From contig CAVYGQ010000001.1 of the NCBI GenBank assembly GCA_963768175.1, forward strand, positions 190,305 through 254,304: DNA of 64,000 nt. Direction: 5' to 3'. Under the pieces are notes generated by a model, which was given only the letters and a program-made list of their open reading frames with translations, was not told the origin of the DNA and did no database searches. This DNA is from Candidatus Doudnabacteria bacterium. Its GTDB lineage: Bacteria > Patescibacteriota > Doudnabacteria > UBA920. A program made the translations under genes and the position numbers. Positions within the stretch are counted from its first letter, which is position 1. Each line of letters opens with the position of its first letter. Below are positions 954 to 59,526 of this stretch, piece by piece.

Positions 954-1421
954 ATGAATGTAAAGACGATTAGCCTTAAAGGTTTTACTTTAATTGAGCT
1001 TTTAGTGGTCATTTCTATTATTGCGCTCTTAGCTTCCATAGTTTTAGTGGCATTAAATAACGCCAGGATGAAGTCCCGCGATGCCGCAAGAGTCGCAAAT
1101 ATGAACCAATTAGCCAAGGCTTTTGAGCTATATTATAACGATAAGTTCAGCTATCCTACAAGCGGTGCCGGGTCTTTGTCTACCAGTGCAATTCCGGGCC
1201 TTTTAATCCCCAACTATTTAAGCAAGATGCCCCTTACTATTAACCCCGCTGATGGAAGTTGCAGTTCAGTAGCTGGGGTAAACGGTTCAAATGATTATTA
1301 TATCTACAATAACGCCGCTACTAGTGTAACAAACTCTTACGCTATTACTTTTTGTTTAGGTTCCTCAGTCGGGGCGGTTCCCGCCGGGCCGCATACGCTT
1401 ACCCCGGCTGGTATTCAATGA
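954..1421 (+). CDS. type IV pilin / pseudopilin (prepilin-type N-terminal methylation motif)
   Basis: N-terminus KGFTLIELLVVISIIALLASIVL is the class III signal/N-methylation motif; C-terminal TFCLGSSVGAVPAGPHTLTPAGIQ tail. Confidence 0.85.
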   Translation: MNVKTISLKGFTLIELLVVISIIALLASIVLVALNNARMKSRDAARVANMNQLAKAFELYYNDKFSYPTSGAGSLSTSAIPGLLIPNYLSKMPLTINPADGSCSSVAGVNGSNDYYIYNNAATSVTNSYAITFCLGSSVGAVPAGPHTLTPAGIQ

Positions 1422-1511
1422 TTTGATTTTAGATATTTAAACAAGAAACTGATAACGTCTGGGACGAAACCCTTGCGACTGTAGTTATATATAAAGTATT
1501 TAAAAAACAAA

Positions 1512-2606: not shown

Positions 2607-2611
2607 AATTT

Positions 2612-3289
2612 ATGAAAATTTGCATTATTGAAGACGAAGAACTTCTGGCAAAAGCCTTATGTAAAGGTTTGAATAATTTGGGTTATCAGGCAGAATATTT
2701 TTTGGATGGAGCGGAAGGGTGTAAAAGTTTGGAACTTGGCCACGAAGATTATGATTTGGCGATGGTTGATTTAATGCTTCCCAAAAAAAGTGGTTTGGAA
2801 ATTTGCCGAAGTTTGCGCGAGAAAAAAATTACTTTGCCAATTTTAATCCTAAGTGCCCGTGATAGCGTGGTCGATAAAACCAAACTGCTGCAAAACGGAG
2901 CGGACGATTATTTGACTAAGCCATTTTCTTTTGAAGAGCTGGCCGCTCGCATACAGGCTTTGCTGAGACGGCCCAGAGCTTCTTTACTGATTGAATTAAA
3001 GGTAGGAAGTTTGAGCTTGGAGACAATTAATCATAAGGTTTGCTATAAAAATAACGAAATTCCTTTGTCTTTAAAAGAGTTTGATTTATTGGAATATTTT
3101 GTCAGGCACCCTAAACAAACCATTACTAGGGAACAGCTTTTAAAAGATCTTTGGGATTTTGATTCAGCCAGTAACATTATAGAAGTTCATATTAAAAATT
3201 TGAGAAAAAAAATAAAAAAGCATACCAACGAAGAAATTTTGCAAACAGTCTGGGGCAGCGGTTACAGGCTGAACGGTGATTTTAAATAG
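2612..3289 (+). CDS. OmpR-family response regulator (receiver + winged-helix)
   Basis: MKICIIEDEE...DLMLP receiver motifs; C-terminal EVHIKNLRKKI...GSGYRL trans_reg_C; 5-nt gap to kinase. Confidence 0.85.
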   Translation: MKICIIEDEELLAKALCKGLNNLGYQAEYFLDGAEGCKSLELGHEDYDLAMVDLMLPKKSGLEICRSLREKKITLPILILSARDSVVDKTKLLQNGADDYLTKPFSFEELAARIQALLRRPRASLLIELKVGSLSLETINHKVCYKNNEIPLSLKEFDLLEYFVRHPKQTITREQLLKDLWDFDSASNIIEVHIKNLRKKIKKHTNEEILQTVWGSGYRLNGDFK

Positions 3290-29165: not shown

Positions 29166-30518
29166 ATGGAAGTTTTAACAAGCATATTGCCGAATTTCAG
29201 AGAAGTTTTCCATATAGCCTTTTTGGTAATAGTTACCTATTACGGATGGGTGCTTTTTGTTTTAGGGCTTGTTTATATGCTTTATTTTGAATATTTGGAA
29301 GAAATCCAGGCACAATATGTTAAAGCTACCGAGTGGGTATTCCTACATATTTTAGTGCCAAAGGAAAATACAGTAAGCACGTTGGGGGTGGAAAATATTT
29401 TTGCCCAAATGCACGCGCTTCACAGAAGCCTAACTTGGCATGAAAAGTATGTTGAGGGGAAATTCCAATTGTGGTATTCCCTGGAAATAGTCAGTTTGGG
29501 CGGTGTAGTATCTTTTATTTTAAGAGTACCGAAGCGTTCCCAGCATCTGGTTGAATCCGCTTTTTACGCCCAATACCCGAGTGCCGAAATCCATGAGGTA
29601 TCGGATTACATGGAAAACTTCAAATTGGACCCTTACAATGACGATAACCAGTACGATTTTTTCGGAACAGAATGGAAAATGGCCCAGGATAGCGTTATCC
29701 CCATAAAAACCTATAAAGAGTTTGAACATCCTTCGGCCGAAGAAAAAATTATAGACCCGCTTGCCAATCTGATTGAAACCATGGAGCGGGTTAAGCCGCA
29801 CGAATTTTTATCGTTGCAAATCCTCATCCAGCCTATCCAAAATGACGAATGGGAAGAGCGAGCCGTAAAAAAAATAAAAGAGCTGACTGGCGAGGAAATT
29901 CCGCACGAAGCTTCAATCTTAGGCTTTTTCCTAAGGCCGCTTCACTGGTTTGCCGGTTTTAATTACAAAGAAACCTTTTTTGGTTCCCATGGTGGCCACG
30001 CCGAGCAGGAAAACAAACCCAGGAATAACTGGCTGAACATGAGCGAAGGGGAAAAGGGGCGCGTGACTCTAATTGAAAATAAAATTAACAAGGCCTGTTA
30101 TAATACCAAAATAAGATTATTGTACATGGCGCCCAAGGCCGAATATGACAAAGGCAGGCGTTTTGAACTAATCGGCGCGCTTAGGCATTTTAGCCCTGGT
30201 GGCGGGGCCGGGATGCACAACACGCTTAAGGTTGACTCGCATATCTGGACAAAGGTAGATCCATACTTTTCCGAGGCTTTGGAAGCGTACTTTTTGGACA
30301 GAATTACAAAGTACAGAAAATATTGGTTTTTACGGGGCTACAAAAACCGCAGTATTTACGTCGGATCACCGAAGTTTTTACTGAGTACGGAAGAACTTGC
30401 CACGTTATTCCATTTCCCGATTACTTTTGAAACCACGGTAGCGCCAGCCCAAGTGCAGGCCATAGCCAGTAAAACCGCCAGGCCACCGGCAGACTTGCCG
30501 ATTGCCCAGACCGAGTAA
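29166..30518 (+). CDS. hypothetical membrane-anchored protein (partner of the downstream ATPase)
   Basis: Single N-terminal TM region HIAFLVIVTYYGWVLFVLGLVYMLYF; no recognisable domain. Confidence 0.5.
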   Translation: MEVLTSILPNFREVFHIAFLVIVTYYGWVLFVLGLVYMLYFEYLEEIQAQYVKATEWVFLHILVPKENTVSTLGVENIFAQMHALHRSLTWHEKYVEGKFQLWYSLEIVSLGGVVSFILRVPKRSQHLVESAFYAQYPSAEIHEVSDYMENFKLDPYNDDNQYDFFGTEWKMAQDSVIPIKTYKEFEHPSAEEKIIDPLANLIETMERVKPHEFLSLQILIQPIQNDEWEERAVKKIKELTGEEIPHEASILGFFLRPLHWFAGFNYKETFFGSHGGHAEQENKPRNNWLNMSEGEKGRVTLIENKINKACYNTKIRLLYMAPKAEYDKGRRFELIGALRHFSPGGGAGMHNTLKVDSHIWTKVDPYFSEALEAYFLDRITKYRKYWFLRGYKNRSIYVGSPKFLLSTEELATLFHFPITFETTVAPAQVQAIASKTARPPADLPIAQTE

Positions 30519-30525
30519 TTGCTTA

Positions 30526-30624
30526 AAACTTTCTTTACCAACTACTAATTTTACGAATATACCAATGTTCGTTCTCAGAAGTTAGTATATTAGTATCGAT
30601 TCGTAGTTAGTAAAGTCAGTAATT
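30526..30624 (+). repeat. ~100-bp conserved intergenic element (copy 1), ending 5 nt before the start codon
   Basis: aactttctttaccaactactaatt...agttagtatattagta..gattcgtagttagtaaagtcagtaatt, near-identical to 48459-48555. Confidence 0.8.
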
Positions 30625-30629
30625 AAAAA

Positions 30630-32444
30630 ATGGATAACGACGAAAACAGAATTACAATTTTTGCCAAAACCAACTTCCGCAACAAGGAAGTGCCTTTTGG
30701 CATTAAAACCGACGACCGCCGCCGCCATATGTATTTAATCGGGAAAACCGGCATGGGCAAAACCACGCTTATGGAAAATATGGTCATTCAGGACATCCAA
30801 AACGGTCACGGCGTGGCATTTTTGGATCCGCACGGCGATTCAGTCAAAAGAATTTTGGACTGCGTCCCATCAAACCGAATAAACGACGTAATTTATTTTA
30901 ATCCAGCAGATTTGGAATACCCCGTGGCTTTCAATATTTTGGAATCGGTTGATCCAAAATACAAACATTTGGTGGCTAGCGGGCTTATGGGCGTTTTTAC
31001 CAAAATCTGGGCTAATTTGTGGTCAGCAAGGATGGAATACATTTTGAACAATACGATTTTGGCTTTGCTGGACAGCCCGGGCAACACCCTTTTGGGAATT
31101 ACCAGGATGTATGTGGATAAAAAATACCGCAAAAAAATCGTGGATAACATTAAAGACCCCATGGTCCGCGCTTTTTGGGTAGATGAGTTTGCCAATTATA
31201 ACGAAAAATACCGCACCGAAGCCATTGCGCCAATCCAAAATAAGGTCGGGCAGTTTTTGAGCTCCGGCATTATCCGCAACATTGTCGGGCAGCCAAAAAG
31301 CACAATAGACCTGCGCGAAATCATGGACAACCGTAAAATCCTGATTATGGATTTGTCCAAGGGAAAAGTCGGCGAAGACAACTCCGCGTTGCTTGGCGCC
31401 ATGCTGGTAACCAAAATCCAGCTGGCCGCCATGTCCCGCACGGACATCGACGAAAAAGACAGAAAAGACTTTTACCTTTATGTGGACGAGTTCCAGAATT
31501 TTGCCACCGAAAGTTTCGCCACAATTTTAAGCGAAGCCCGCAAGTACCGCCTTAACTTAATTGTCGGCCACCAGTATATTGCCCAGCTGGAAGAAGACAG
31601 AAGCACCAAAGTCCGCGACGCGATTTTCGGTAACGTCGGGACGATTATTATATTCAGGATTGGCGCCGTAGACGCCGAATTTTTGGAAACTGAATTCGAG
31701 CCGATTTTTACCCCAAGCGACCTGGTTAACTTGCCCAAGTATTCAATTATTTTAAAATTAATGATTAACGGCGTGGCTTCGGACCCGTTTTCCGCGATAA
31801 CTCTCGCACCCAACCCTACCCATCTTACGGGCAACCAGGAAAAAGTTTTAAAAGTTTCCAGGGAACGTTATGCCAACCCCGCCTCTGAAGTTGAAGAAAA
31901 AATTTCCCGTTGGATGGGCGCGGAATATCACCAGGAATCGGCTTTACTGATAGGCAGCGAAGAACAGCAACCGTCGGAGTCGCCCGAACAAAACCAGCAG
32001 CCCGTTGAACGGCCAAAGCCGCAGGCCCAAGAGAAAGCTGAAGCCGAAGCTCAAAAAAATTCGGAGCCTAAAAAGCCGGCTGAATCGCCCCAAAGGCCGT
32101 TTATTGAAAAAAAGGGCCAGGTTTTCAGGCAACCGGAAAAAGCTCGCCAGCAAAAAGACCGGCCTCACAGGCAACAGCAAAACCAACAGCCAAGGCAGCA
32201 AACCAAAACCAATGTCAGCAACCGCGGCCAAGAATCAAGGACCCAGCAAAAAAGGGAAAACCCCATTTGGGATAAAGTTGCGAATTTTCAACAGGAAAAA
32301 ATTAACCAAGCAAACAAAAAAACCGGCGAGGCCGTGGCTCAAATATTAACCCAGTCTCCACAACCCGTCGTTCCAAAGCCGCAATTAGAATCGGGAACAG
32401 TAGAAAAAAAAGTTCTAAACCCAGGCGAATTGCACAAACTATAA
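30630..32444 (+). CDS. VirD4/TraD/TrwB-like FtsK-HerA-superfamily P-loop ATPase (AAA_10/TraG-D_C-like) with ~190-aa low-complexity Q/P/E/K-rich C-terminal tail
   Basis: Walker A LIGKTGMGKTT followed by AFLDPHGD (compare TrwB VDPNGD); Walker B FYLYVDEFQNF; GHQY; disordered tail QQPSESPEQNQQPVERPKPQAQEKAEAEAQ... Confidence 0.6.
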   Translation: MDNDENRITIFAKTNFRNKEVPFGIKTDDRRRHMYLIGKTGMGKTTLMENMVIQDIQNGHGVAFLDPHGDSVKRILDCVPSNRINDVIYFNPADLEYPVAFNILESVDPKYKHLVASGLMGVFTKIWANLWSARMEYILNNTILALLDSPGNTLLGITRMYVDKKYRKKIVDNIKDPMVRAFWVDEFANYNEKYRTEAIAPIQNKVGQFLSSGIIRNIVGQPKSTIDLREIMDNRKILIMDLSKGKVGEDNSALLGAMLVTKIQLAAMSRTDIDEKDRKDFYLYVDEFQNFATESFATILSEARKYRLNLIVGHQYIAQLEEDRSTKVRDAIFGNVGTIIIFRIGAVDAEFLETEFEPIFTPSDLVNLPKYSIILKLMINGVASDPFSAITLAPNPTHLTGNQEKVLKVSRERYANPASEVEEKISRWMGAEYHQESALLIGSEEQQPSESPEQNQQPVERPKPQAQEKAEAEAQKNSEPKKPAESPQRPFIEKKGQVFRQPEKARQQKDRPHRQQQNQQPRQQTKTNVSNRGQESRTQQKRENPIWDKVANFQQEKINQANKKTGEAVAQILTQSPQPVVPKPQLESGTVEKKVLNPGELHKL

Positions 32445-36883: not shown

Positions 36884-37215
36884 AAGGGTGGCATTAGGAA
36901 TGTTTTTTTAACGCACGGCTTAAAATTGACGCCAAAAAACTCCTGAAGCCCAAATTCAATAGAGTTTGGCCTTCTTAAAAAGATGCCCCCAACAGAAATC
37001 AAAATAAAGCCGGAATGCTGGAGGGGAGAGAATATTTCCAGTAAGCTTTTTAGAATTACCTTCACAAAAACCGCCGCGCTTTCCGGCCTTAGGCGGGTCA
37101 GCCTCGGACTGATGCTATGCGCGGGGTTTTTGTTTTTTGGCTTTGGGCTTGCCGGTGGGCTCCGTGGTCAGTGAGCGGGTGCTCCAATAACCTTAAGGTC
37201 AAGCAGACAAACCAT

Positions 37216-40200
37216 ATGTCCCTGTACCAAAAATTAAAACAAACTTCCCTTCGACCCCCCCACTGGCACCAGTATCTTGTCCCTTATGGGGTGGCTTTGG
37301 CTTTTCTCGTGCTCTTGTCCCTGGCTTTGCTGCCAACCTTCAGCCATCCGGTTAAGGCCGCGGCTACTACTTATTATATTGATTATGCCAGCGGCAGTGA
37401 TTCTTATAACGGAACTTCAAAAGCTACACCTTGGAAACACGCGCCGGGGATGCAGGGTTTCTCTGCTTCTTACACTCATCAGGCCGGAGATGTTTTTATT
37501 TTCAAAGGCGGCGTGACCTGGGGCGAAACCAATTGGAAAATGACAGTGAACGGTGGCGGTACGAACGGCGACCCCGACTACTATGGTGTCGACAAGACTT
37601 GGTACACGGGGAGTTCGTGGGCGCGACCGATCTTCGATGCTGAAAGTGCATCAATTAGCGGTAATGGAATTATGATTCAGGTTGAAGCCGGTTATGTTAC
37701 CTTTGACAACATCGAGTTTAGGAACCTCGTGAGTGCGTCTTCTGCCGCAACGAAGTACATCGGGATAGACAGCCAGTCTAACATTCTGGTCGAGAATTGT
37801 TATTTTCATGCGTGGGACCAGGTGTACTTCAACATCTCGACGATTAGCCGAAACTCAAGTGGGGTGGTGACCGTGACAACAGCAGGGGCGAATGATTTTA
37901 CCACCGGTATGAACTTGGTCGTTTCAGGCGTCACAGACAATTCATTCAACACGTCGTGCGGCAATCACTGCGGCAGTCCTACGGGGTCCATCACGGTCAT
38001 GAGCGGGACGCAATTTATTTACACGAGTGCGAATATGACGGCAGCAAGTTCCAGCGGAGGCATTGTCAGTGACACTGATCAGGGCATGGGAGTTGTGACA
38101 TGCGGCGGAACTTGCACCTCGAATGAGGTGACAAATTGCCTGATTGAAAATACGTCTTTCTCCACCGTTCACAATTCCGGCGAGGTATTTCAAGGTATCA
38201 ACCATATCGACCACAATACGATACACGATGTTGCCTCGGTCGCTTCCGGGGTTAACGTCTTTGATGACAACCTGATCTACGACGTAAGCTACCCGACGGC
38301 CGATTTTGACGCTTCTTACCATACCGATGGTGCCTACCAGGTGTACTCTGGAGCCATATACAACAACGTCTTCTATAACTACGGCGCGAATGAGACGGCC
38401 CTCTACCCGAACCCAGAGGGCGATAACTCCACGTGTACCCCAAACACCGTAAGCATTTACAATAACGTCTACTTCCCGCTGGCAGCACCCGATACCGTGA
38501 ACATGGTGGACATCAATGACTCTTATTATACGGGAGCGGGCGGGTGCGACACGATCAACATTTACAACAATACCTTGGTGGCGAATGGCTTGGTCGATGC
38601 TGTCCGAGTGATCGGCAGGGGGTCAGGAATTGCCAACCTGAACGTTGAAAACAACCATTTTATCAATTCGACAGGTGCGGTAGAACTTTGCTTTAATATG
38701 AGTGGCTGTGGCAATGCGGCGACAGTTACCAATACTAACAACATCTGGCAGTCAACAGCGACGGCAACCGCGCAAGGCTATACGACCTCCGAGGTATATG
38801 CTTATTCCCCAGTTTCAGGCGGCGCAACGATCGGAGCGGGCGCAAATTTAACGGAGGTCTGTTCTGGGAATCTTGCAGCACTGTGCAATGACACTACTTT
38901 TGGCAATAGCCGCACAACGGTAAGTCGTCCCGCCTCCAGCGCTTGGGATGCCGGCGCTTACCAATATCAGACAGCTCCGTTAGCCAATGTCTATATTGCC
39001 CAGACCGCCCAAGGTTCAAACAACGGTACTTCCTGCGCCAATGCCAAAGCCGTCTCCTTCTTTAACACTGCCGGCAACTGGGGTACCGGCACCGGCCAGA
39101 TTGGCCCCGGCACCACGGTACACCTGTGCGGGGTGTTTTCTACCGCAACTCCGAACACTTCTATGCTCACGCTCCAAGGCAGCGGCTCATCTGGCTTACC
39201 CATCACAATTTTGTTTGAGAGTGGCGCTCAATTGAATTCTCCTGCCTGGGGAGCGAACGGCGCAATCAATCTGAACGATCAGAATTACATTACTATCGAC
39301 GGAGGCACAAACGGGCTTATTCAGAACACTGCCAACGGGACCAGTCTGACTTACCATCAGGCTTCCACGATGGTGTACCAGCCAAGCATTTCCGGGTCGG
39401 TACATGACATTGAAATTCGTAATCTTACGTTTACAAACAATTACGTGCGTGTGGCAAACACCGCGTCGGACGAGGCAGCCGCTGGTGGCAGCGGTGTCAT
39501 CGTTCTCTTGTCTGCGGGAAGCAACATCCTTATTCACAACAACACGATGACAAACTGCGGAAACGGTGGTATTGGCGTGTCTGGAAGCAACACGAATTCT
39601 ACGAATTGGCAGATATACAGCAACACTATTAGTCAGGCATCCTGGCTCATCAATGTGGCTAACGTCAATAGCCAAACCCACTATATCTTCATCCATGACA
39701 ACGATCTGTCAAACAACGATCAATACTGGGACACAACCCTAGTAAATTGCGGAGATGATTGCCCATACTTTCACAACAATGCAATTTTCCTTTATGGCAA
39801 TCCTACCGGCGGAGCCACGGGAACCTATGGCTATGCCTATATCTATAACAATTACATTCATGGTGCGCTAGGGGTCATGACGGGTTTCATATTCGCCAGT
39901 CTCACGACGGATGGCCCAATCTATGTCTTTAATAACGTGATGAAGCCGACATCAACCTACACTGGCGGTCCTAGTAACCTAGCCTGCAACGCGGATGGGT
40001 GGGTAGCGCTGCCCTGGCAGACCCTAGACGTTCACGTCTATAATAACACCTTCAATGCGAGTGCAGCCTGTGGAAATAGCTCTCCCAGCCCCTACAACTT
40101 CGGCACCAGGACCACCGTATCCAACGCGAGCACGTTGGACTGGGTGAACAATATAAACTATTATGTCTCCGGCCACGACATTGAGGATGGGGCTATTGGC

Positions 40201-43200
40201 ACCTCGGATTACAACGTCTGGTATGGAATTAGCTCGGGAGGGGAGCCCCAGCAGGCGTTCAAGTGGAACGTCTCAAACGCAGGCTGGTGGTACTACTACA
40301 ACACATCTTGCCCGAGATGGACCTATAGCGCGGCGCAGAACACGAGTTGCGGAGAATCCGGCGATCCTCGCCCATCCGCATACGATATCCACGGTGTCAC
40401 AGGAGACCCGAAGCTATCCACAACCGACCAGCTAGGTGCTGGGTCTTCGGCAATAGGGCTTGGGACGAACCTAACATCTGTCTGTAATTCAGATTCGAAT
40501 CTGGCTCCTCTGTGTCTGGACAAGTCCGGCACCGCCCGTCCCGCCTCCGGTGCCTGGGATGCCGGCGCCTACCAATACGCCACCAGCACCGACACCACCC
40601 CTCCCGCCGTGGCTTGGGTGTCTCCGGCCTTAAATGCCACGGTCTCCGGAACCGTCACCCTCACCGCCTCCTCCACCGATAACGTGGCTGTTTCCACCAC
40701 GTCCTTCTATGAGGGTAGCTTCGGCAGCAGTCTTGCCTCCAGCACCCTCATCGGCTCCACCTCCACCCCCAGCGGTACCCTATATTCCATACCCTGGAAC
40801 ACGGCCTCTCTTACGAACGGCTCCACCACCCTCTGGGCCCTCTCCACCGACACCTCCAGCAACACCACTACGGCCTCCAGCACGGTCAATGTGGAGAATC
40901 CACCTACAATCTCTGCCGTCTCCACCTCCACTGCCACCAGTACCGCCACCATCACCTGGACCACGAGCCACACCGCCTCTTCCCAGGTCAACTACGGTCT
41001 CACCTCCGGCTACGGCTCTTCCACCGCCACCTCCACCCTGGTCACCAGCCATTTAATCACCCTAACCAACCTTACGGCTAGCACCACTTACCACTACCAG
41101 ATCCTCTCCACCGACGCCCAGGGAAACCCAGCCACCACGACGGATGCGACATTTGTGACCATGGCTTTAAGCTCCCGCACCTTCTATATCGATCTCGTAT
41201 CTGGCAACGATTCCCAAGCTGGAACTAAGTTAGCCCCCTGGAAACATGCCCCCGGAATGACGGGGTTCAGCGCAACCTACAGCCATGCCGCAGGAGACCA
41301 ATTCATTTTCAAAGGTGGGCAGACGTGTGGTTCGAGCGGCACCCCCTGCTTCACATCCTGGACTATTTCTAACTCCGGGTCCGCTGGGGCGGGACATGAT
41401 TACTATGGGGTTGACCAGACATGGTATGCCGGAGCCTCATGGTCAAAACCTGTTATTGATGGCGGCCACAAGAACCCCGTGGTTGCCGACCCCTATATTG
41501 AAATCACGGGCTCCTACGTCACCATGGACAGTCTGCGCGTGCAGAACATTGGCGTAACTCCCGCAGAGAACGGTGGAACGGGACTGAATCAAGGAAATTA
41601 TGCCGTTGAGCTTACCGGAGGCAATCACGACATCTTGATTGAAAATATGGTATTGCCTGTGGAGAGCCGGATCGCCATTGCTTTTATAGAGTCTGGAACT
41701 CCGAACAATATTGAGATCAAAGGGAATGATATTTCCGCATGTTCATGGGGACTGGGCGGTGGCGGAGGCGTCGGCACGGGCTTTTCTTTCCATGACAACG
41801 TCATCCATGATTTCCACGACCAGATGGCAAGCGGGGCCCATGGAGATGGCCTGTACATTTTTGGTGACGCCACCAGCTACCTTGTAAGTCCTCTTATTTA
41901 CAATAATTGGGGCTATGGCGACTTCTCGCCGTCTGAACTCGGGCAGCGGGGCCGGGATGACCGCGTTTCTGTGGATTTCCGCCGCTTCCGGGAACCTGTA
42001 CGCGTACAACAACCATTGGACGGAGAGCGACACAACAGGAGGAACAGCACATGCGTTAAGCTTTGGCGGACCAGATGCAAGCGTACAGCCCAACGTCTAT
42101 ATCTACAACAACAGCATCCAGCAGAACGCGGTGTCGTACTACGGCATTTCGGTTGACCAAGCCGCGAGCGCGGTCGTTGAAAACAACATCGTTATCGGCG
42201 GCAGCGAGGCTCTGACCTTCGGGCAGTATCAGAACGTCAGAAGCGTAACCAGCGACTACAATGATCTCTACGGGTTCACCGCTTATGCCGCTACTGTCAA
42301 TGCCTCGGCATACGGAAGCTGGGCGAGTTTCCATTCAGCCGGATACGAAGCTCACGGCTTCAATACCGATCCCAAGTACGTAAATCCGACAGATTCCGGA
42401 AGCGGTGGCAACTTGCATTTACAATCCTCATCGCCTCTCGTTGGGCAAGGGGTCAATTTGTATTCGATATTCACCACCGACGCGGACGGCATTTCCCGTC
42501 CCGCCTCCGCCGCCTGGGACATCGGTGCTTACCAGTATGCCACCTCCACCCCCACCTACACCATCGGCGGCACCATCAGTGGCCTGACCGGCACCGTAGT
42601 GTTGCAGAATAACGGGGGAGATAACCTCACTACCTCTGCCAACGGCGCCTTTACCTTTGCCACGGCCACCACCAGCGGGGGAACGTATAATGTCACGGTC
42701 TTAAGTCAGCCCTCAAACCAGACCTGCAGTGTCAGCAACGGCAGCGGCACCGTCTCTAGCGCTAACATTACCAGTGTTACCGTGTCCTGCACCACCAATT
42801 CCTCTGGAGGTGGTGGGGGAGGCGGCGGCTCATCAGGCGGTGGCGGGGGAGGCGGTGGGGGATCAATTGCCCCTGTTTCCTCAACTCCCCAGCCCGGTGC
42901 TCCAAGTACCTCAACCTCTCCCTCGGTCTTGCGCCTGATTAACTCCTCCGGCACCCTCTATCTCATTAAGGGGGGCTACCGTTACGGTATTACCTCCCCG
43001 GGCATCCTCTACAGCTATGGTTTTGACTTTCCGGATGCCAAAGCAGCCACCACCGCTGATTTAGCCATACCCTTGGGCAGTTTGCTCCTGCCCGGCAACG
43101 GCTATCTGGTTAAATCTAACCAGGACAAGACAGTTTACCTCATTTCCAACAACCGGCGTTATGCTTTTGTCTCTGCCCAGGTCTTTACCGCCCTTGGTTT

Positions 43201-43483
43201 CTCTTTTAGCCATGTCTTTATTGTCACCAACCCGGAACTGCAGTCCTTGCCTAGAGCCGCTGACCTCAGCAACGGCCAATCGGCTCATCTGCCCGGCTTA
43301 GACATCAACAAACAAGGCACCATCTACTGGATTGGGGGGGACAGCACCCTGCACGGTTATCCGTCCTTAGCTGTTTATAACAGTTGGCACAAAGATAATG
43401 ATTTTTCACAAGTAGTTCCCGCTAATACCGCTGATATGTCTATGCCCATAGGTGGTCTGGTGGAGGCAAGGACGCTGGAGTAA
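37216..43483 (+). CDS. giant (~2,090 aa) secreted multi-module right-handed beta-helix / Ig-FN3 / poly-Gly / C-terminal triple-repeat surface protein, GC-rich, reading frame interrupted by an apparent frameshift near 41,930-41,960
   Basis: ORF-track pieces 37117..42156 and 41915..43483 overlap in different frames. Signal peptide VALAFLVLLSLALLP; three NxxxN-rich beta-helix modules each capped by RPASxAWDxGAYQY; near-duplicate module N-termini (TTYYIDYASGSDSYNGTSKATPWKHAPGMQGFSASY / TFYIDLVSGNDSQAGTKLAPWKHAPGMTGFSATY); T/S-rich FN3-like region; G8-SS-G10 linker; three ~50-aa C-terminal repeats. Confidence 0.7.
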
Positions 43484-50167: not shown

Positions 50168-52402
50168 ATGTTCCAGAACAACATCAGAAATTTCTGCATC
50201 ATCGCTCATATTGACCACGGTAAGTCCACGCTGGCTGACCGGCTTTTGGAAATTACCCACACAGTCAGCAAGCGTGACATGAAGGACCAGCTGCTTGACC
50301 AAATGGATTTGGAACGGGAAAGGGGAATTACAATCAAGCTGCAACCTGTCAGAATGCAATATACGCTGACTAACACGGACAGTAAACGGACTAACGCGGA
50401 AGGCAATTTGTTATACGAGGATTTAACTTACAAGATAAGAGGGGCTGTATTTGAAGTCCGCAGGCAAATCGGCCCGGGCCATAAAGAAAGTGTTTACCAG
50501 AACGCCTTGGCTTTAGAGTTCAAAAAACGAAATATACCTTTTGAAAAGGAAAAACGCATTGATGTCTTGTATTACGATAAAAAAGTCGGCGTTTACCAAC
50601 CAGATTTTTTAATAGATAATAAAGTATTACTGGAAACCAAAGCTTTGTCATTTATTGGAAAGAATGAAGAGAGACAGGTTTGGCATTATTTAAAAGGTAC
50701 TCCATATAAACTCGCTCTATTAGTCAACTTCTCTTCTGCCGGCGCCGATATCAAACGGATTATTAATACTCCGTTACAGTCCATTTCCGAAAAGTCCGTT
50801 CCTAGTCCATCACCGTCAGTGTACACATTGAATTTAATTGATACGCCAGGGCATGTGGACTTTAGTTACGAAGTTTCGCGATCCCTTGCCTGCTGTGAAG
50901 GCGCAATTTTAGTCGTGGACAGCACGCAAGGCATAGAAGCCCAAACCTTGGCCAACGTCCACTTGGCACAGGAGCATAATTTGGTTTTAATCCCGGTGGT
51001 CAATAAAATAGATTTGCCAAACTCCGACCGTAAACAAACCGCGGAAGAACTAAAAACCGTTTTTGGCTTCACGGACAATGAAATACTTTACGCCTCGGGG
51101 AAGACCGGCGAAGGCGTGGAGGATATTTTAAAAGCGGTAATCAAAAAAGTTCCTCCTCCGGTCGGCGACGAACAAAAGCCGTTCCGCGGCCTGATTTTTG
51201 ACTCCATGTACGACATCCACCGCGGCGTGGTAATTTTTGTCCGCTGTTTTGACGGAGAATTAAAAAACCGAGAAAAAGTCTTTACCATCGGCAGCCAAAC
51301 CCAGTTTGAAAGTTTGGAGGTCGGATATTTCCATCCAAAAATGGAAAAGTCCGATGGAATAAAAACCGGCGAAGTCGGCTATATAGTCACCGGTTTGCGC
51401 GACGTCAGCAAGGCCCGCGTGGGCGACACTGTCACGCTGTATGATCGAAAAACCGATGTAAAACAACTGCCCGGCTACAAACACGTAAAGCCGATGGTTT
51501 ATGCCACCATTTTCCCGGTCAGCGGGGATGACTATCCGCTTTTGCGCGATGCCATGAACAAATTAAAGCTTTCCGATGCCGCGCTGGAATTTGAGCCGAT
51601 AAATATTCCTTCCATCGGCTTTGGTTTCCGCACAGGGTTTTTGGGGCTGCTTCATATGGACATTGTACAGGAGCGCCTGACCCGCGAATACAATTTGGAT
51701 TTAATTTTAACCGCGCCTTCGGTGGCTTACCATGTCGTGACAAGCAGCGGAAAAGATTTATACATCCACAACCCGGCGGAGTTTCCCGATCCGTCCATCA
51801 TAAAAGAGCTTTACGAGCCGTGGATGTCCGTAAATATTTTGGTGCCGCAAACTTACATTGGCCCGATTATGGAAATCGCCACCCAGCGCCGCGCCATTTC
51901 CAAAGACATAAAATATTTGGGCAAAAATCGCGTGGAAATGAATTTTGAAATGCCGCTGGCCAATATTATTTCCGATTTTTACGATAAGCTTAAATCCGTG
52001 TCCAGCGGTTATGCCAGTTTGAATTATGATTTAATTGAAGAGCGGGTAGGGGATTTGGTTAAAGTGGATATCTTGGTCGCCGGCGAGCCGGTAGTCGCGC
52101 TGTCGGCAATTATGCACCGTTTTACCGCTACCGCCGAAGGCAAGCAATTAGTGGAAAAACTTAAAACCTTAATTCCCAAACACCAGTTTGAGGTTGCCAT
52201 TCAGGCCGCAATTGGCGGTAAAATAATCGCCCGCGAAACCATCTCCGCCCTGCGCAAAGACGTTACCGGCTACCTTTATGGCGGCGACGTCACCCGCAAA
52301 ATGAAACTTTTAAATAAACAAAAACGCGGCAAAAAACGGATGAAGAGAATAGGTAAGGTGGATATTCCTCAGGAGGCATTCCTTGCTGTACTTAAAAAAT
52401 AA
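50168..52402 (+). CDS. lepA: elongation factor 4 (LepA) carrying an in-frame ~150-aa GxxExxY / PD-(D/E)xK-family domain insertion between switch I and the DTPGH G3 motif
   Basis: [22 protein letters not shown], then insertion ([35 protein letters not shown]...[16 protein letters not shown]...[19 protein letters not shown]), then [24 protein letters not shown] and the complete LepA C-terminus. Confidence 0.85.
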   Translation: [744 protein letters not shown]

Positions 52403-54722: not shown

Positions 54723-55265
54723 ATGTTCAAATTTGATTTGCTGGAAAACGAAAAAGTCATCAATATTTATCGGCAAACCGAGGCGGTGCTATTTAAACCG
54801 GTACTCATTATTTTTGTGTTAATATTTTCCCCCTGGTATTTTTTAATCAAATACGAATTAGTTTCCGGCCATGAGCGCCTGCTACTGTTTTGGACTTTCT
54901 TGGTTTTTTTGTATGGCGTCCGCACTTATCTTATTTGGCTCCTTAACGCTTATATTGTTACCGATATGCGCTTAATAAATGTCTCCCACAAAAGCCTGCT
55001 TAATAAAAAAGTGGTGGAGACCCCGCTGGAGCGGATTTTAAATGTCAGTTTCCAAATAAAAGGTTTTTGGCAGTCCCTATTCAGATTCGGCACGGTAGAA
55101 GTCCAGGCGGCAGGCCTTGTTGATCCTTTGGCTTTAAAAAACGTTAGCCAGCCCGATAAGCTTAAGGATTTCTTATGGAAAATCCATAACCAGCATTCGG
55201 GAGGAGGGATTTTAACGCAAAATTTGGAAATTAAACACCCGTCTTTACCTAGGCAGGTAAAATGA
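54723..55265 (+). CDS. membrane protein with bacterial PH-like (YdbS/YdbT-type) domain
   Basis: Two TM helices followed by a ~100-aa soluble domain; generic. Confidence 0.4.
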   Translation: MFKFDLLENEKVINIYRQTEAVLFKPVLIIFVLIFSPWYFLIKYELVSGHERLLLFWTFLVFLYGVRTYLIWLLNAYIVTDMRLINVSHKSLLNKKVVETPLERILNVSFQIKGFWQSLFRFGTVEVQAAGLVDPLALKNVSQPDKLKDFLWKIHNQHSGGGILTQNLEIKHPSLPRQVK

Positions 55266-55627
55266 TAAACAAACAAGCCCTGTCATCTAAAATAACTATC
55301 GTAGGCCTGTTAATTTTACTGGCCTTCTTGTCGGATTGGAAATACAAACAGTGGTCCAGTGAAAAATTAATCCAGAAACAAAAACAAGATTTACAACAGC
55401 AGGCCGACGCTTTACAAAAAAAGAACAACGAATTAAGCCAGTCCTTGCAGGATTTTAATTCTCTCAGCTTTAAGGAAAGTGTGGCCAGACGGCAGCTGAA
55501 TTTAAAAAAACAGGGTGAGCAGGTTTACACTTTTATGGATGCCGCGGCAGCCGGCCAAATGCAGAATCAAAATTCCCAAGGCCGGGGTAATGCTAAAAAA
55601 TGGCTTGATTATTTTTTTGCGAACTAA
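55262..55627 (+). CDS. septum formation initiator family protein (FtsB/DivIC-like)
   Basis: Single TM + coiled-coil (QKQKQDLQQQADALQKKNNELSQSLQD), ~120 aa. Confidence 0.6.
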   Translation: MINKQALSSKITIVGLLILLAFLSDWKYKQWSSEKLIQKQKQDLQQQADALQKKNNELSQSLQDFNSLSFKESVARRQLNLKKQGEQVYTFMDAAAAGQMQNQNSQGRGNAKKWLDYFFAN

Positions 55628-55630
55628 AAA

Positions 55631-56494
55631 ATGCCCAGCAAACATCGCAAAATTTTAAAATATGTTTGTTGGCTAACGGCAATTATTCTGGTCTTAATAA
55701 TCTCGACCGCCTTATGGCTGTATACGGGTACGCTCACGCAGGACAAAATAAAAATTTTCCAAATCGTGCCTCTGCCCATGGCCTTGGTAAACGGGCATCC
55801 TCTTCCCATAAAGGATTTTTTGATAAGGTTTGGCGTTGCCCAAAAAGTTTTGACGCAAAATAACGAGCAACAGGCAAAATTCGCCATTGCCCAGCAGCTG
55901 ATTTTGGAAGACGAAATTTCCCAACTAGCGGCACAAAGTGATGTCTCGGTAAACCAAAAACAAATTGACCAAGAATACTCAATTTTATCGGCTCAAACAA
56001 ATTTGCAGGGGCAGCCTAATTTTGAAAAATTTTTGCAAAGTCAAAATTTAAATGAAAGCATCTTAAAAAACAGCGTGATAAAGCCAGAACTGCTTTTGGA
56101 CCAGCTGCGAATTTGGTTTAACTCCCAGCCCAATTTAAATCTTCGGGCCTACGGTTTGGCAAACAACCTGCTGACACAAATAAACGAGGGGAGCGACATG
56201 GCTGCTTTAGCCGTTCACTTTTCGGAAGACCCGACGGGAAAAAGTTCCGAAGGGGATATGGGTTTTGTGCAAATAACCGATCTCTCTTTAGAACTTAGGG
56301 AAAGCGTAAGCAACCTAAAGCCCGGCGAAACCAAAATTATCCCCGGCCTTAAGGGATTGTATATTATCCGCTTGGAGGAGCAAACCAATAACCGCTTGCA
56401 TTTGAGGGAAATATTTTTAAATACGGACGATTTTAACGCTTGGCTCAACGCCCAAACAAAAAATTTTAAAGTCATTAATTTATTAAAAATCTGA
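55631..56494 (+). CDS. parvulin-type peptidyl-prolyl cis-trans isomerase (PrsA/SurA-like), membrane anchored
   Basis: C-terminal PpiC-like domain ...SEGDMGFVQITDLSLELRESVSNLKPGETKIIPGLKGLYIIRLEE. Confidence 0.6.
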   Translation: MPSKHRKILKYVCWLTAIILVLIISTALWLYTGTLTQDKIKIFQIVPLPMALVNGHPLPIKDFLIRFGVAQKVLTQNNEQQAKFAIAQQLILEDEISQLAAQSDVSVNQKQIDQEYSILSAQTNLQGQPNFEKFLQSQNLNESILKNSVIKPELLLDQLRIWFNSQPNLNLRAYGLANNLLTQINEGSDMAALAVHFSEDPTGKSSEGDMGFVQITDLSLELRESVSNLKPGETKIIPGLKGLYIIRLEEQTNNRLHLREIFLNTDDFNAWLNAQTKNFKVINLLKI

Positions 56495-56596
56495 CAAGTA
56501 TAAAGTTATAGGTTGTGGAAACCGGTGTAGTCATAAGCAATAGGTTATAGGGTACTTATAACCATACACTTATTACTAAACCGGCATCTATAACTT

Positions 56597-58678
56597 ATGA
56601 CTATTAACCAAAACATTATGGACCAAGAAATTGTCGACTACATTTTACAGGCCCAAAAACACGGGCTGGTCGATTTAGAAATTAAACAAAACTTGCTTGA
56701 CGCCGGCTGGGATGCCAACATGGTTGAGCAAAGCTTTATTTTTGCAAAAGCAGTTGATACGCACTCGGGCGCTAACGATGTGCCACAGGTACCGGCTGGC
56801 TACCGAGCCTCCCAAAGACCCGATTTAAGCCGGCAACCAGCGGCTTTCCAAAATACCCACACCACCGTTGCCATTAGCGAAGAACAATTTCGAAAAGCTT
56901 CCGAGCCTCAAAAACACGGTTTTTTTAAGAAACCAGCACTTTGGATAGCCGTTGCGGTTCTAATGTTGCTGGCGGTCGGAACCTATGCCTATTACAGTTT
57001 AGTTTTAGCCAACCCGGCAAGAATTTGGCAAAAATTTACCCAAGCAGGCCAGCAGGCTACTTACCAGACAAAGTTCAATTTTTCTTATTCCGATCCCGGC
57101 CAATATGACAGCGGCACAAGCAGCCTTGTTAGCTTCCAATTTAAAAATATTAAACTCCAGTTAAGCGGCAGCGGTTATGTTAACGACCAAAATAAGGACA
57201 ATCCGGAATCTACTTCCAAAATCCAATACACTTTCAGCAGCGGCAATACCAGTTTTTCCACCGGTTTAGAATACATATTGCAAAATAAAATTTTATACTT
57301 AAATGTCGGCAGCAACCCAATTTTAGATTTTATCAGCCAGGAGGCCAACAACGGGCAAAAAATTGACTGGATAAAAATTGATTTAAGCCAATTAAGCAAT
57401 CAGGCTTCCGGTACTCCGGATACGGCTAAATTTTATCAACAGTTTGCCAACCCCGATTTTAAAAACGAACTCCAAAAAATTTGGGAAAACACTACCATAA
57501 TAAAGGAAGGTTCGTATGTCGGTCGGGAAAAAATTAACGGCGTTACGACTTTACATTTTAAAAATTCCGTAGATAAACAAGCCCTTAAAGGTTTAATAAA
57601 CCAGTATGTCCAGGAACTGACCAAAGCCCTTAAAGGCAGCGGCTCGGAGCTTTCCGACAGCGACGCCCAAACCATTAACCAAATCGCCGGCCAGCTCATT
57701 GATAAAGTCCAAATTCAAGATTTTGAAACCTGGGTCGGAATGACCGACTTTAAGCTTTACCGGGTACATTTGGCTGTTAATGCCCCTTCGTTAATATCTT
57801 TGGCAAAAAATGCGGGAAGCTTCATAGAGCCCTCTTCCGACGACGATAAAAGGATATTAGATGTAAGGCGTACGGCATCCGCTCTGGAACTTTATTATAA
57901 CGCGCACCACGGCTATCCCGATGCCTTAAACGGCCAACCAGTTGATTTAGTACCTGCGTATATGACTTCGTTCCCAACCGCTCCCCAGACTGCCGGCAAT
58001 TGCAGTGATTTTTTTAACACCTATTGGTACCAACCTATGGGACAAAAAACTATATATCAAGGCAAAACGGTTTATTCCTCTTATCAAATGACTTTTTGTC
58101 TTGGATCGTCTGCGGACGGTTATCAGGCCGGCATCGGGAAACTCACACCTTCGGGCATAACGGCCAACATAACTTGCCCGGGAACCCCGGAGCACTGCGC
58201 CAAATCGGCGGATGCAATTGACCCCAACATAGCTATAAAACAACAAATAACAGATTTCATTAGCAAGCTTGATTTTAGCGCCCAAGTCCAGGCCGATGCA
58301 GATTATACCGATTACGGCAAAACAATTCCTGTTACTCCTCCGGCAAGCTCGTTTGATCTTGTGCAAAAGTACCAAGCGACCCAAAGTCTGGCGGACGATG
58401 CCAAAAGGCTGGCTGACATAAGACAGATGTCCAGCGCTTTAGAGCTTTACTATAACGATAAAGGCTCTTACCCCCAAAGCCTAAATGCCTTGTCGCCGAC
58501 ATACATTGGAATCGTTCCTATTCCGCCCGCAGCTTCGGGGACTTGTTCCGAACAGGATAATGCCTATACCTATACAAAAATTGCTCCCGGAAAATTCCAG
58601 TTAACTTTTTGCTTAGGGCAGGCAACCGGAGGATATGCACCGGGCAGGCATACTTTATCGGAAACGGGGATTCAATAA
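56597..58678 (+). CDS. membrane protein with two tandem pilin-like globular domains lacking the prepilin N-terminal helix
   Basis: Two blocks, (ALELYYNAHHGYPD...YQMTFCLGSSADGYQAGIGKLTPSGI) and (ALELYYNDKGSYPQ...FQLTFCLGQATGGYAPGRHTLSETGIQ), parallel the pilin at 954-1421 (FELYYNDKFSYPT...ITFCLGSSVGAVPAGPHTLTPAGIQ). Confidence 0.6.
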   Translation: MTINQNIMDQEIVDYILQAQKHGLVDLEIKQNLLDAGWDANMVEQSFIFAKAVDTHSGANDVPQVPAGYRASQRPDLSRQPAAFQNTHTTVAISEEQFRKASEPQKHGFFKKPALWIAVAVLMLLAVGTYAYYSLVLANPARIWQKFTQAGQQATYQTKFNFSYSDPGQYDSGTSSLVSFQFKNIKLQLSGSGYVNDQNKDNPESTSKIQYTFSSGNTSFSTGLEYILQNKILYLNVGSNPILDFISQEANNGQKIDWIKIDLSQLSNQASGTPDTAKFYQQFANPDFKNELQKIWENTTIIKEGSYVGREKINGVTTLHFKNSVDKQALKGLINQYVQELTKALKGSGSELSDSDAQTINQIAGQLIDKVQIQDFETWVGMTDFKLYRVHLAVNAPSLISLAKNAGSFIEPSSDDDKRILDVRRTASALELYYNAHHGYPDALNGQPVDLVPAYMTSFPTAPQTAGNCSDFFNTYWYQPMGQKTIYQGKTVYSSYQMTFCLGSSADGYQAGIGKLTPSGITANITCPGTPEHCAKSADAIDPNIAIKQQITDFISKLDFSAQVQADADYTDYGKTIPVTPPASSFDLVQKYQATQSLADDAKRLADIRQMSSALELYYNDKGSYPQSLNALSPTYIGIVPIPPAASGTCSEQDNAYTYTKIAPGKFQLTFCLGQATGGYAPGRHTLSETGIQ

Positions 58679-58725: not shown

Positions 58726-59526
58726 ATGAAAATTGGCATTTTTGATTCCGGCCTTGGCGGTTTGGTAATCGCCAAGGCTATTTTAAAAAAGCTCCCCGGG
58801 TATGATTACATATACCTTGGCGACACCAAGCGTGTGCCTTACGGAAACCGGCAAAAAAACGAAGTATATAAATTGACACTTGGGGCTGTTAAATACCTTT
58901 TTGAACATGACTGCCAATTGGTTATTTTAGCCTGTAATACCGCCTCGGCTTTGGCTTTGCGAAAAATCCAGCGGAAATTTTTACCCAAATTTTATCCGGA
59001 CAGGCGCGTGCTGGGAGTGGTTATCCCTACTTTGGAAGAAGCCAATAAAAACCATACCAGAAAAATTGTCGGCGTCTTGGGGACCACGGCAACTGTTAGC
59101 TCACACATTTATAAAAAAGAATTGATGAAAATCGACCGTAAAGCCAAAATTTTTGAAATAGCAGCGCCAAAACTGGTCATGTTAATTGAGCAAAATTCTT
59201 TACAAAAAGCCAAAAAAGTCTTAAAATCATACATGAAACCGCTTTTGAAGCACGATATTGAAGCGCTGATTTTGGGTTGTACCCATTATCCGTTGTTAAA
59301 GGACGAAATTGGCAAGCTGGCGGGGAATAAAATAAAGATGGTTTCCCAAACCGATTTTTTGCCAGGAAAGTTGAAAGATTATTTAAAGCGGCACAAAGAA
59401 ATTGATAGCAAACTGTCTAAAAATGGTAAGTGCGAATTTTTGGTTACGGCTTTCAACAAGGATTTTGGCGAAGTAGCAAAGAGGTTATTTGGGAAAAAGT
59501 TGAAGTTTAAAGTTGTTAGTTTGTAG
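58726..59526 (+). CDS. murI: glutamate racemase
   Basis: IGIFDSGLGGL, ILACNTASA and GCTHYPLL catalytic Cys motifs. Confidence 0.9.
   Translation: MKIGIFDSGLGGLVIAKAILKKLPGYDYIYLGDTKRVPYGNRQKNEVYKLTLGAVKYLFEHDCQLVILACNTASALALRKIQRKFLPKFYPDRRVLGVVIPTLEEANKNHTRKIVGVLGTTATVSSHIYKKELMKIDRKAKIFEIAAPKLVMLIEQNSLQKAKKVLKSYMKPLLKHDIEALILGCTHYPLLKDEIGKLAGNKIKMVSQTDFLPGKLKDYLKRHKEIDSKLSKNGKCEFLVTAFNKDFGEVAKRLFGKKLKFKVVSL

Follow-up and report, generated by a model that had tools for sequence, protein, structure and literature searches.

Two stalkless pilin-like domains and a predicted lipid-carrier-like domain on a membrane-tethered protein of Candidatus Doudnabacteria

Results

The window analyzed here is a 64,000-nucleotide (64-kb) stretch of a Candidatus Doudnabacteria contig (CAVYGQ010000001.1 of assembly GCA_963768175.1, positions 190,305 to 254,304 of the forward strand), and the gene of interest, designated X, is an open reading frame (ORF) at 56597..58678 on the + strand that encodes a membrane protein of 693 amino acids (aa) carrying two pilin globular domains (heads) from which the hydrophobic stalk is missing. 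Since nearly all X homologues begin at the second methionine (M8, nt 56618), among them a 686-aa database protein with 100% identity, this residue is the likelier start, giving a protein of 686 aa. The protein opens with a three-helix domain (aa 8-54; 56618..56758, + strand), defined by conservation and by AlphaFold2 (AF2) helices at residues 5-21, 26-35 and 40-54 with a predicted local distance difference test (pLDDT) score of >90; it has the strongly conserved consensus EIxxYIxxAxKHGLxDxEIKQNLLxAGW, is N-terminal in most family members and is predicted to be cytoplasmic. A poorly conserved linker (aa 55-111; 56759..56929, +), variable in the alignment and predicted to be disordered (pLDDT <50 for residues 56-111), joins this domain to a single transmembrane (TM) helix (aa 113-137; 56933..57007, +), which was recognized by hydropathy and as an AF2 helix spanning the same residues. 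Beyond the membrane helix lie a middle domain (aa 140-408; 57014..57820, +), which Foldseek comparison with the PDB predicts to be an LprG/LprF/LppX/LolA-like beta half-barrel with helices, and the stalkless pilin-like head 1 (aa 412-524; 57830..58168, +; Cys469/Cys501), located by BLASTP, alignment and AF2. These are followed by a C-x6-C loop (Cys527/Cys534) with a conserved linker (58169..58369, +), seen in the alignment and in AF2, and by the stalkless head 2 (aa 597-693; 58385..58675, +; Cys650/Cys672), which ends the protein in GIQ and is delimited by BLASTP, by AF2/Foldseek and by its fused, split and absent states among relatives. Head 1, found in nearly all family members, contains an aromatic insert (YYNTYWY...GK.VY.SY.), and the linker element between the heads (helix 543-557, strand 562-571, P582 and D587) is kept even in members without head 2. 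The AF2 model of full-length X, built on an alignment of 50 homologues, had a mean pLDDT of 84.3. No above-threshold match in Pfam, NCBIfam or the PDB sequences was obtained, whether the query was the N-terminal domain, the middle domain, the linker or X in full.

Both head domains of X are true homologues of the globular domain of type IV pilins. The window itself encodes a genuine type IV pilin (954..1421, +; 155 aa), which has a class III signal (KGFTLIELLVV) and a head of the same family, and which matched Pfam N_methyl (E 7.6e-7), TIGR02532 (E 5.9e-8) and a GspG-type N-terminus (E 1.1e-11). By BLASTP, residues 601-693 of X aligned with residues 43-155 of this pilin (38% identity, E 6e-17) and residues 414-521 with residues 41-154 (35% identity, E 7e-15), and the two heads of X were 41% identical to each other (E ~1e-19). 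These E-values rule out a chance or low-complexity motif as the source of the similarity. No further copy of the head was found in any frame of the window. An AF2 model of head 2 alone (40-sequence alignment) reached a pLDDT of 95.4 and a predicted template modelling score (pTM) of 0.85, and its ten best PDB matches by Foldseek were all type IV pilins or pseudopilins, among them EpsG (TM-score 0.60, prob 0.99), PilE, C. difficile PilA1 and PilV; the Foldseek E-values were weak (0.03 or more), as would be expected of a query with 96 residues. A head profile searched against the PDB matched the alpha1-C region of GspG with E-values of 0.002-0.06. The Pfam model T2SSG (PF08334) matched X at 18.2 bits (E 0.0026), over aa 599-632 only and below its gathering threshold of 21 bits, and was matched at E<0.01 by 23 of the 50 X homologues.

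The amphipathic alpha1-C helix and the beta-sheet are retained in both heads, as is an invariant cysteine pair, but the leader and the hydrophobic alpha1-N have been lost from both. The head begins at the point where alpha1 exits the membrane; this junction reads ...LLASVVLVALNSARAKAR/DAKR in pilins (slash at the junction), and the fused heads keep a vestige, l..a(r/q)(a/s)kSR/DAKR, of the pilin junction 'LNSARAKSR'. The hydrophobic fraction upstream of the fused heads is 0.40-0.46 versus 0.91 in pilins, and the hydropathy maximum (KD19) is 1.0 ahead of head 1 and 0.01 ahead of head 2 versus 3.2 for the pilin stalk. Searches with Pfam N_methyl and TIGR02532 and a motif search detected no class III signal in X. 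Under the established assembly mechanism, incorporation of a type IV pilin into the filament needs the alpha1-N/class III signal, and since the heads of X have neither, they cannot polymerise. The cysteine of the TFCLG motif and its partner were 100% conserved across 250 head copies, consistent with a disulfide, and the terminal GIQ proved only a preference (GI[QKEDN]).

These results bear out much of the original prediction for this locus. The pilin at 954-1421 is bona fide, the two internal domains share its pattern beyond low-complexity coincidence, neither of them has a hydrophobic stalk, and the predicted fold of head 2 is pilin-like and not an unrelated one, all as had been proposed; the absence of alpha1-N and of a class III signal likewise agrees with the suggestion that X displays its heads without being polymerised. 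The single TM helix was also correctly placed. The proposed TFCLG...GIQ signature holds for the cysteine pair but not for the final GIQ, and the description of X as an N-terminal soluble domain followed by a TM helix was right about the three-helix domain but overlooked the largest domain of the protein (aa 140-408). It also did not foresee that head 2 is optional or that stalkless heads are widespread among other proteins.

To our reading, X spans the membrane once. The segment at aa ~113-137 is the only hydrophobic one in the protein (KD19 max 2.0), and it is preceded by KHGFFKK, a positively charged N-terminal flank. All six cysteines (pairs 469/501, 527/534 and 650/672) are C-terminal to the TM helix, with none before residue 469. 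Because of the charged flank, the position of the cysteine pairs and a DsbA domain in the homologue P0024 (below), the part of X that follows the TM helix is likely to be extracytoplasmic; the topology would be single-pass, N-in/C-out, and the cysteine pairs would form disulfides.

The middle domain had no above-threshold counterpart in sequence searches: neither LppX_LprAFG (PF07161) nor LolA was matched by X in the Pfam/NCBIfam searches, and no PDB sequence was matched. The structural comparison of the full X model with the PDB gave matches to LprG (3mh8, 3mh9, 3mha and 4zra; E 2e-5 to 2e-4, with 3mh8 at 2.2e-5 and prob 1.0), LprF (4qa8, E 2.7e-4) and LppX (2byo, E 7.5e-3), with probabilities of 0.99-1.0 and target-normalised TM-scores of 0.38-0.47, and these were the only significant Foldseek matches. 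LolA3 came next (E 1.4e-3, prob 0.82, TM-score 0.22), and CD36-family proteins appeared at E~0.2. Among curated families, NCBIfam NF053532 (SCO4651-family lipoprotein) matched aa 230-351 at 37.6 bits (E 1.9e-9) without reaching its cut-off of 65 bits, and similar sub-threshold matches fell within the middle domain in 43 of 50 X members; these scores, being below threshold, indicate a remote relation only. PgfA and PorA/DUF3068 gave weak local matches at aa ~306-342 (E ~0.1). The matches to CD36-family proteins, NF053532 and PgfA/PorA, though weaker, are in line with the LprG/LppX result. X has no lipobox cysteine, and its anchor is the internal TM helix at aa 113-137. From a single method applied to a predicted model, aa 140-408 is thus predicted to be an LprG/LppX/LolA-like half-barrel. 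In known proteins this fold shelters the acyl chains of lipids, glycolipids or lipoproteins, and the half-barrel of X may similarly bind lipid.

A word-indexed search retrieved 51 relatives of X (27-74% identity), all of them 'hypothetical' proteins, and the named ones came from Candidatus Doudnabacteria or Patescibacteria metagenome-assembled genomes (MAGs), with one exception labelled Limnocylindria. Both the middle domain and head 1 contain residues that are invariant across the family. When one genome per species was scanned with a 13-sequence alignment as the query, X was found in 32 species-level genomes of Doudnabacteria-type Patescibacteria, mostly as a single-copy, syntenic orthologue. 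Some genomes have X paralogues, either in tandem (L010 1889-5880) or 3 kb apart (L026 9926-11623), and the second, non-syntenic copy at L014 comes from the same MAG as the syntenic copy at L025.

Head 2 occurs in three states. At the 32 genome loci it was fused to X in 14, absent with nothing adjacent in 14 and encoded by a separate adjacent gene in 4, and a further separate gene at metagenome locus L004 brought the split loci to five. The split genes directly follow a single-head X (L004 7540-7950, L009 3003-3401, L011 6881-7318, L017 6820-7245 and L019 6788-7216) and encode TM-anchored proteins of 133-146 aa with a short basic leader, a Gly, a hydrophobic helix, ...LLSLNSARAKSRDAKR, and a head ending in GIK, GIE or GVQ. 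Their prepilin signal is degenerate, with Glu at +3 or +7/+8 and not at +5. Among the window sequences, head 2 is the closest to them (53-59% identity), compared with 44-48% for head 1 and 40-47% for the genuine pilin. Two proteins recovered by the head profile search described below, P0148 and P0164, resemble these split partners. Since the leader and helix of the separate genes are missing from the fused proteins, the split state is not a sequencing frameshift. Head 2 appears to descend from a neighboring, membrane-anchored, atypical pilin-like gene that was fused to X with deletion of the anchor, suggesting that X acts with a membrane-tethered, probably non-polymerising pilin-like protein that has become covalently attached in the lineage of the window. 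Other members vary in their heads: in P0024 (L003 8001-10328) a DsbA/Thioredoxin_4 domain with a CPAC active site replaces head 2, and the gene that follows encodes alanine racemase, not MurI, while P0187, one of three proteins from a search with the middle-domain alignment, has no head 1 and keeps the linker and the terminal head.

In an exhaustive search with the profile of the three window heads, 3,851 cluster representatives matched at E<=1e-3; tightening the threshold to E<=1e-10 left 1,171 of them, and to E<=1e-30, 56. The best 150 of these matches, together with earlier matches, were classified with home-made hidden Markov models, a set that is skewed to multi-head proteins. About 125 of the classified proteins belong to the X family, with the order (N-domain)-TM-barrel-head-linker with or without a second head, and with variants in which a head is nested inside the barrel or head 1 is missing. 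Fifteen head copies lie within genuine class III-signal pilins of 136-200 aa, and the remaining proteins carry one to three C-terminal heads, either behind a Sec signal with Kre9/KNH Ig-like, TIG or beta-propeller domains or on zinc-ribbon+RDD multi-TM proteins. The mean identity between pilin heads and X heads was 0.43-0.44, about equal to the identity within each class. As far as these profile matches reach, the stalkless head is a widespread module that is not limited to X.

X lies in a cell-envelope and housekeeping region in which nearly all genes are on the + strand. The window encodes glycosyltransferases, MurG, Mur ligases, MurB, SecA, SecDF, a D-Ala-D-Ala carboxypeptidase, MraY, FtsW, DUF4012, MurJ and LepA. 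After LepA come, in order, a bPH_2 membrane protein (54723-55265, +), DivIC/FtsB (55262-55627, +), a TM-anchored SurA_N+parvulin peptidyl-prolyl isomerase (PPIase) of the PpiD/PrsA type (55631-56494, +), all three assigned by Pfam and synteny, and then X, the glutamate racemase MurI (58726..59526, +), tRNA-Thr and the atp operon; in some genomes alanine racemase (Alr) takes the place of MurI. The full DivIC-PPIase-X-(MurI or Alr) string was present in 28 of the 32 species-level genomes, and in the other four, two loci were consistent but cut by contig ends, one had no detectable PPIase, and one was a second copy from a MAG whose other copy is syntenic. The PPIase gene directly adjoins X in 30 of the 32, and in L001 and L004 there is a 4-nt overlap between the two. 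In the window, the spacer between them (56495-56617) contains short repeated words (ATAGGTT..., AACCGG...); an Rfam scan found tRNA-Thr only, with no RNA element in the spacer, and promoter and terminator scans remained at background level with nothing convincing there.

Neither the 64-kb window nor the 36 related loci (10-18 kb) were found to contain pilus-machinery genes (PilB/C/M/N/O or prepilin peptidase). The genuine pilin is 55 kb from X, and its gene is an orphan (954-3289 region): it has rpsI on one side and genes for a DUF4118-HisKA histidine kinase/OmpR-type response regulator pair on the other, and pilus assembly genes are absent from its surroundings.

Three further features of the window were recorded. 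The LepA protein (50168-52402, 744 aa) has a 147-aa PD-(D/E)XK_3 domain (PF13366, E 3e-32) in frame inside its GTPase domain, at ~50384-50824 between ...LQPVRMQYTL and YTLNLIDTPGH; LepA of the related loci is 597-598 aa long and has no such insertion, and a free-standing homologous PDDEXK_3 ORF lies within the atp operon of L001 (16432-16845). An intein-like origin of the insertion was rejected, as the hallmark residues are absent, and it may represent a mobile nuclease gene that tolerates in-frame residence. In the cell-wall region, a 1,679-aa ORF (37117-42156), for which Pfam gave only a weak purple-acid-phosphatase-N/FN3-like match, overlaps at its 3' end an unannotated 522-aa ORF (41915-43483) by ~240 nt in another frame. 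A protein of 450 aa that matches nothing in Pfam (29166-32444 region), whose BLAST match to head 1 (E 0.012) is probably due to chance, is followed downstream by a VirD4/TrwB-like coupling ATPase (30630-32444), and the two may be a remnant or a part of a patescibacterial type IV secretion system.

Discussion

Overall, these results point to X as a stationary envelope factor, a reading to which we give about an even chance. X would remain in the membrane, N-in/C-out, with a cytoplasmic three-helix domain, a disordered tether and one TM helix; it would be co-expressed with DivIC/FtsB, the PpiD/PrsA-like foldase and a peptidoglycan racemase, and would serve envelope biogenesis or maintenance. The half-barrel would bind and handle a hydrophobic envelope ligand, and the pilin-fold modules would act as disulfide-locked interaction domains making extracytoplasmic contacts with proteins or glycans. 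The architecture of X and the evolutionary history of its heads are solid and mildly surprising, and it is the function, including the envelope role, that is inferred.

Several observations weigh against this reading. The PPIase-X spacer is ~100-120 nt long in this window (56495-56617), and collinearity reaches from MurJ through LepA to the atp operon, so the synteny of X may partly reflect general conservation of gene order and not functional coupling. The middle domain contains invariant polar residues (H320, D384, D326, E311 and K370), which may mean something other than a greasy pocket, and no sequence-level match of X was obtained at any curated threshold. Finally, the heads of X are close relatives of genuine pilin heads (about 43-44% mean identity), which makes a link to pili conceivable.

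The original prediction had proposed that X is a pilus-associated tip, adhesin or anchor protein. On this hypothesis, which we consider unlikely, X would serve as a base anchor, a tip protein or an adhesin, and its heads would interact with, cap or mimic the pilus formed by the pilin at 954-1421. Head-head contacts do occur in type IV pilus filaments, the heads of X are as similar to genuine pilin heads as to one another across the family, and a pilin-like neighbor gene with a hydrophobic N-terminus is present in five loci. However, with no alpha1-N and no class III signal, incorporation of X into a filament is impossible, and the degenerate signals of the split partners argue against polymerisation of these proteins as well. 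Neither the window nor the 10-18 kb loci contain pilB, pilC, pilM/N/O or a prepilin peptidase gene, the genuine pilin is distant, and head 2 is dispensable, 14 of the 32 genomes being without it. In addition, X lies in the full divIC-PPIase-X-murI/alr string in 28 genomes, and it behaves as a syntenic, mostly single-copy orthologue and not as a variable adhesin. The proposed pilus role was therefore not upheld, and X is probably not part of a pilus.

A second alternative, also quite unlikely in our judgment, is that X takes lipids from a host: the heads would bind a host surface structure, and the LprG-like barrel would extract or shuttle host (lyso)lipids to a lipid-auxotrophic cell of the candidate phyla radiation (CPR). 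The predicted LprG/LppX/LolA-like fold, the extracytoplasmic display on a long tether and the aromatic-rich insert in head 1 would suit such a function, and the head module also accompanies Ig-like, TIG or beta-propeller domains in many secreted proteins. Patescibacteria are thought to acquire lysolipids from neighbors by an uptake mechanism that is unidentified (PMC11665869), which also favors this idea. On the other hand, the argument is purely inferential, and the X gene lies among housekeeping division and cell-wall genes and not in host-interaction islands. The membrane tether would also restrict the reach of the barrel across the CPR wall or S-layer, and the LolAB-like SEML1_0598 of Southlakia, a putative counterpart only, is non-essential in co-culture transposon sequencing (Tn-seq).

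It is very unlikely, in our estimate, that X is an extracytoplasmic folding or assembly partner for pilins and other secreted proteins. In this role it would work with the adjacent PpiD/PrsA-like foldase, and in one lineage with its own DsbA domain, and its heads would bind pilin-family proteins fresh from export or act as templates for them. The adjacency of the PPIase gene in 30 of 32 genomes, with the 4-nt overlap in two loci, is consistent with this hypothesis, as are the replacement of head 2 by the CPAC DsbA/thioredoxin domain in P0024 and the presumed need of every head for a disulfide; moreover, MdbA-like oxidoreductases, which are enriched in CPR bacteria, have been suggested to act in pilin folding (PMC6744442). 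Against it, the DsbA domain is found in only 1 of about 50 close members, the adjacency may be plain collinearity, and the LprG-like barrel is left unexplained. The last alternative, that X is a mis-assembled or mis-called gene fusion or a decaying pseudogene, could appeal to the separate head-2 gene of some genomes but has next to no chance, as the same uninterrupted architecture occurs in dozens of independent assemblies with a high-confidence AF2 fold, and the fused forms, which are without the leader and TM helix of the split genes, are not frameshift read-throughs.

What normally defines a type IV pilin is the N-terminal helix through which it polymerises. In the proteins described here, only the head has been taken over as a domain, by a conserved envelope protein as well as by many secreted CPR proteins, and the three states of head 2 (fused, split and absent) preserve a record of a pilin gene turning into part of another protein. 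Surface proteins of unknown function take up a large share of the very small genomes of CPR bacteria. A conserved, membrane-tethered, predicted LprG-like protein within a division and cell-wall gene string is also a concrete candidate for lipid uptake or trafficking in CPR bacteria, for which no such component has been identified (PMC11665869). In the boldest form of this proposal, which we hold to be rather improbable, X would be the first candidate for the machinery, so far missing in Patescibacteria, that acquires lipids or traffics envelope lipids, a tethered LprG-like carrier whose heads dock to a partner surface (the host envelope or the cell's own wall). The pilin head, freed from the filament in CPR bacteria, would then have become a general module for extracellular binding, locked by a disulfide and carried by hundreds of non-pilin proteins. 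The claim that the architecture is new withstood our searches: no description of the X family was found in the literature on pilin-like domains in CPR and on LprG/LolA in Patescibacteria, and Pfam and NCBIfam hold no model for the X family or for the stalkless-head module. Once both are defined, thousands of 'hypothetical proteins' could be annotated, and stalkless copies would no longer be miscounted as pilins.

Comparison with known systems

Like the type IV pilins and the major pseudopilins of type II secretion systems (GspG/EpsG, PilE and C. difficile PilA1), the heads of X have an alpha1-C helix on an antiparallel sheet and a conserved cysteine pair, and they carry a GspG-like alpha1-C signature (RDAKRxADxxxxxxALExYxxDxxxYP). 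Unlike pilins, they have neither a leader nor a G-1/E+5 processing site, and the hydrophobic alpha1-N is missing as well. Placed inside or at the C-terminal end of a bitopic protein of 693 aa, they can be neither cleaved by prepilin peptidase nor polymerised. X also differs from pilins in not being encoded with pilus machinery, in the window as in the related loci. The modular pilins, such as PilB of Streptococcus sanguinis (PMC8179133), resemble X in that a pilin module is joined to another functional module in one polypeptide, but the arrangement is inverted: they consist of an N-terminal polymerisable pilin module with a grafted effector, whereas X is a non-pilin membrane protein with appended stalkless heads. 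With a soluble three-helix domain at its N-terminus and its pilin modules C-terminal, X is not a modular pilin.

For aa 140-408, the closest known systems are the mycobacterial LprG/LprF/LppX proteins (LppX_LprAFG) and LolA/LolB, which share with X the predicted fold, an extracytoplasmic, membrane-tethered location and an envelope gene context. X differs from LprG/LppX in being anchored by a TM helix, with no lipobox, and in having additional N-terminal cytoplasmic and C-terminal pilin-like domains. PgfA (MSMEG_0317, DUF3068/PorA family) is a mycobacterial protein that has been implicated in the trafficking of envelope lipids and has links to proteins of division and growth (PMC9678360). Like X, it is TM-anchored with an extracytoplasmic beta-barrel-like domain; unlike X, it is actinobacteria-specific and has no pilin heads, and its matches, which are far below threshold, serve as a lead only. 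Within Patescibacteria, SEML1_0598 of the saccharibacterium Southlakia epibionticum is a 422-aa hypothetical protein, non-essential in Tn-seq, that is encoded next to murF and was annotated from structure as LolAB-like (ECOD e4qa8A1) (PMC10633639 supplement). It shares with X the matched template, 4qa8 (LprF), and its neighbor is a Mur ligase gene, but it has no reported pilin-like domain. SEML1_0598 may be a saccharibacterial counterpart of the middle domain of X.

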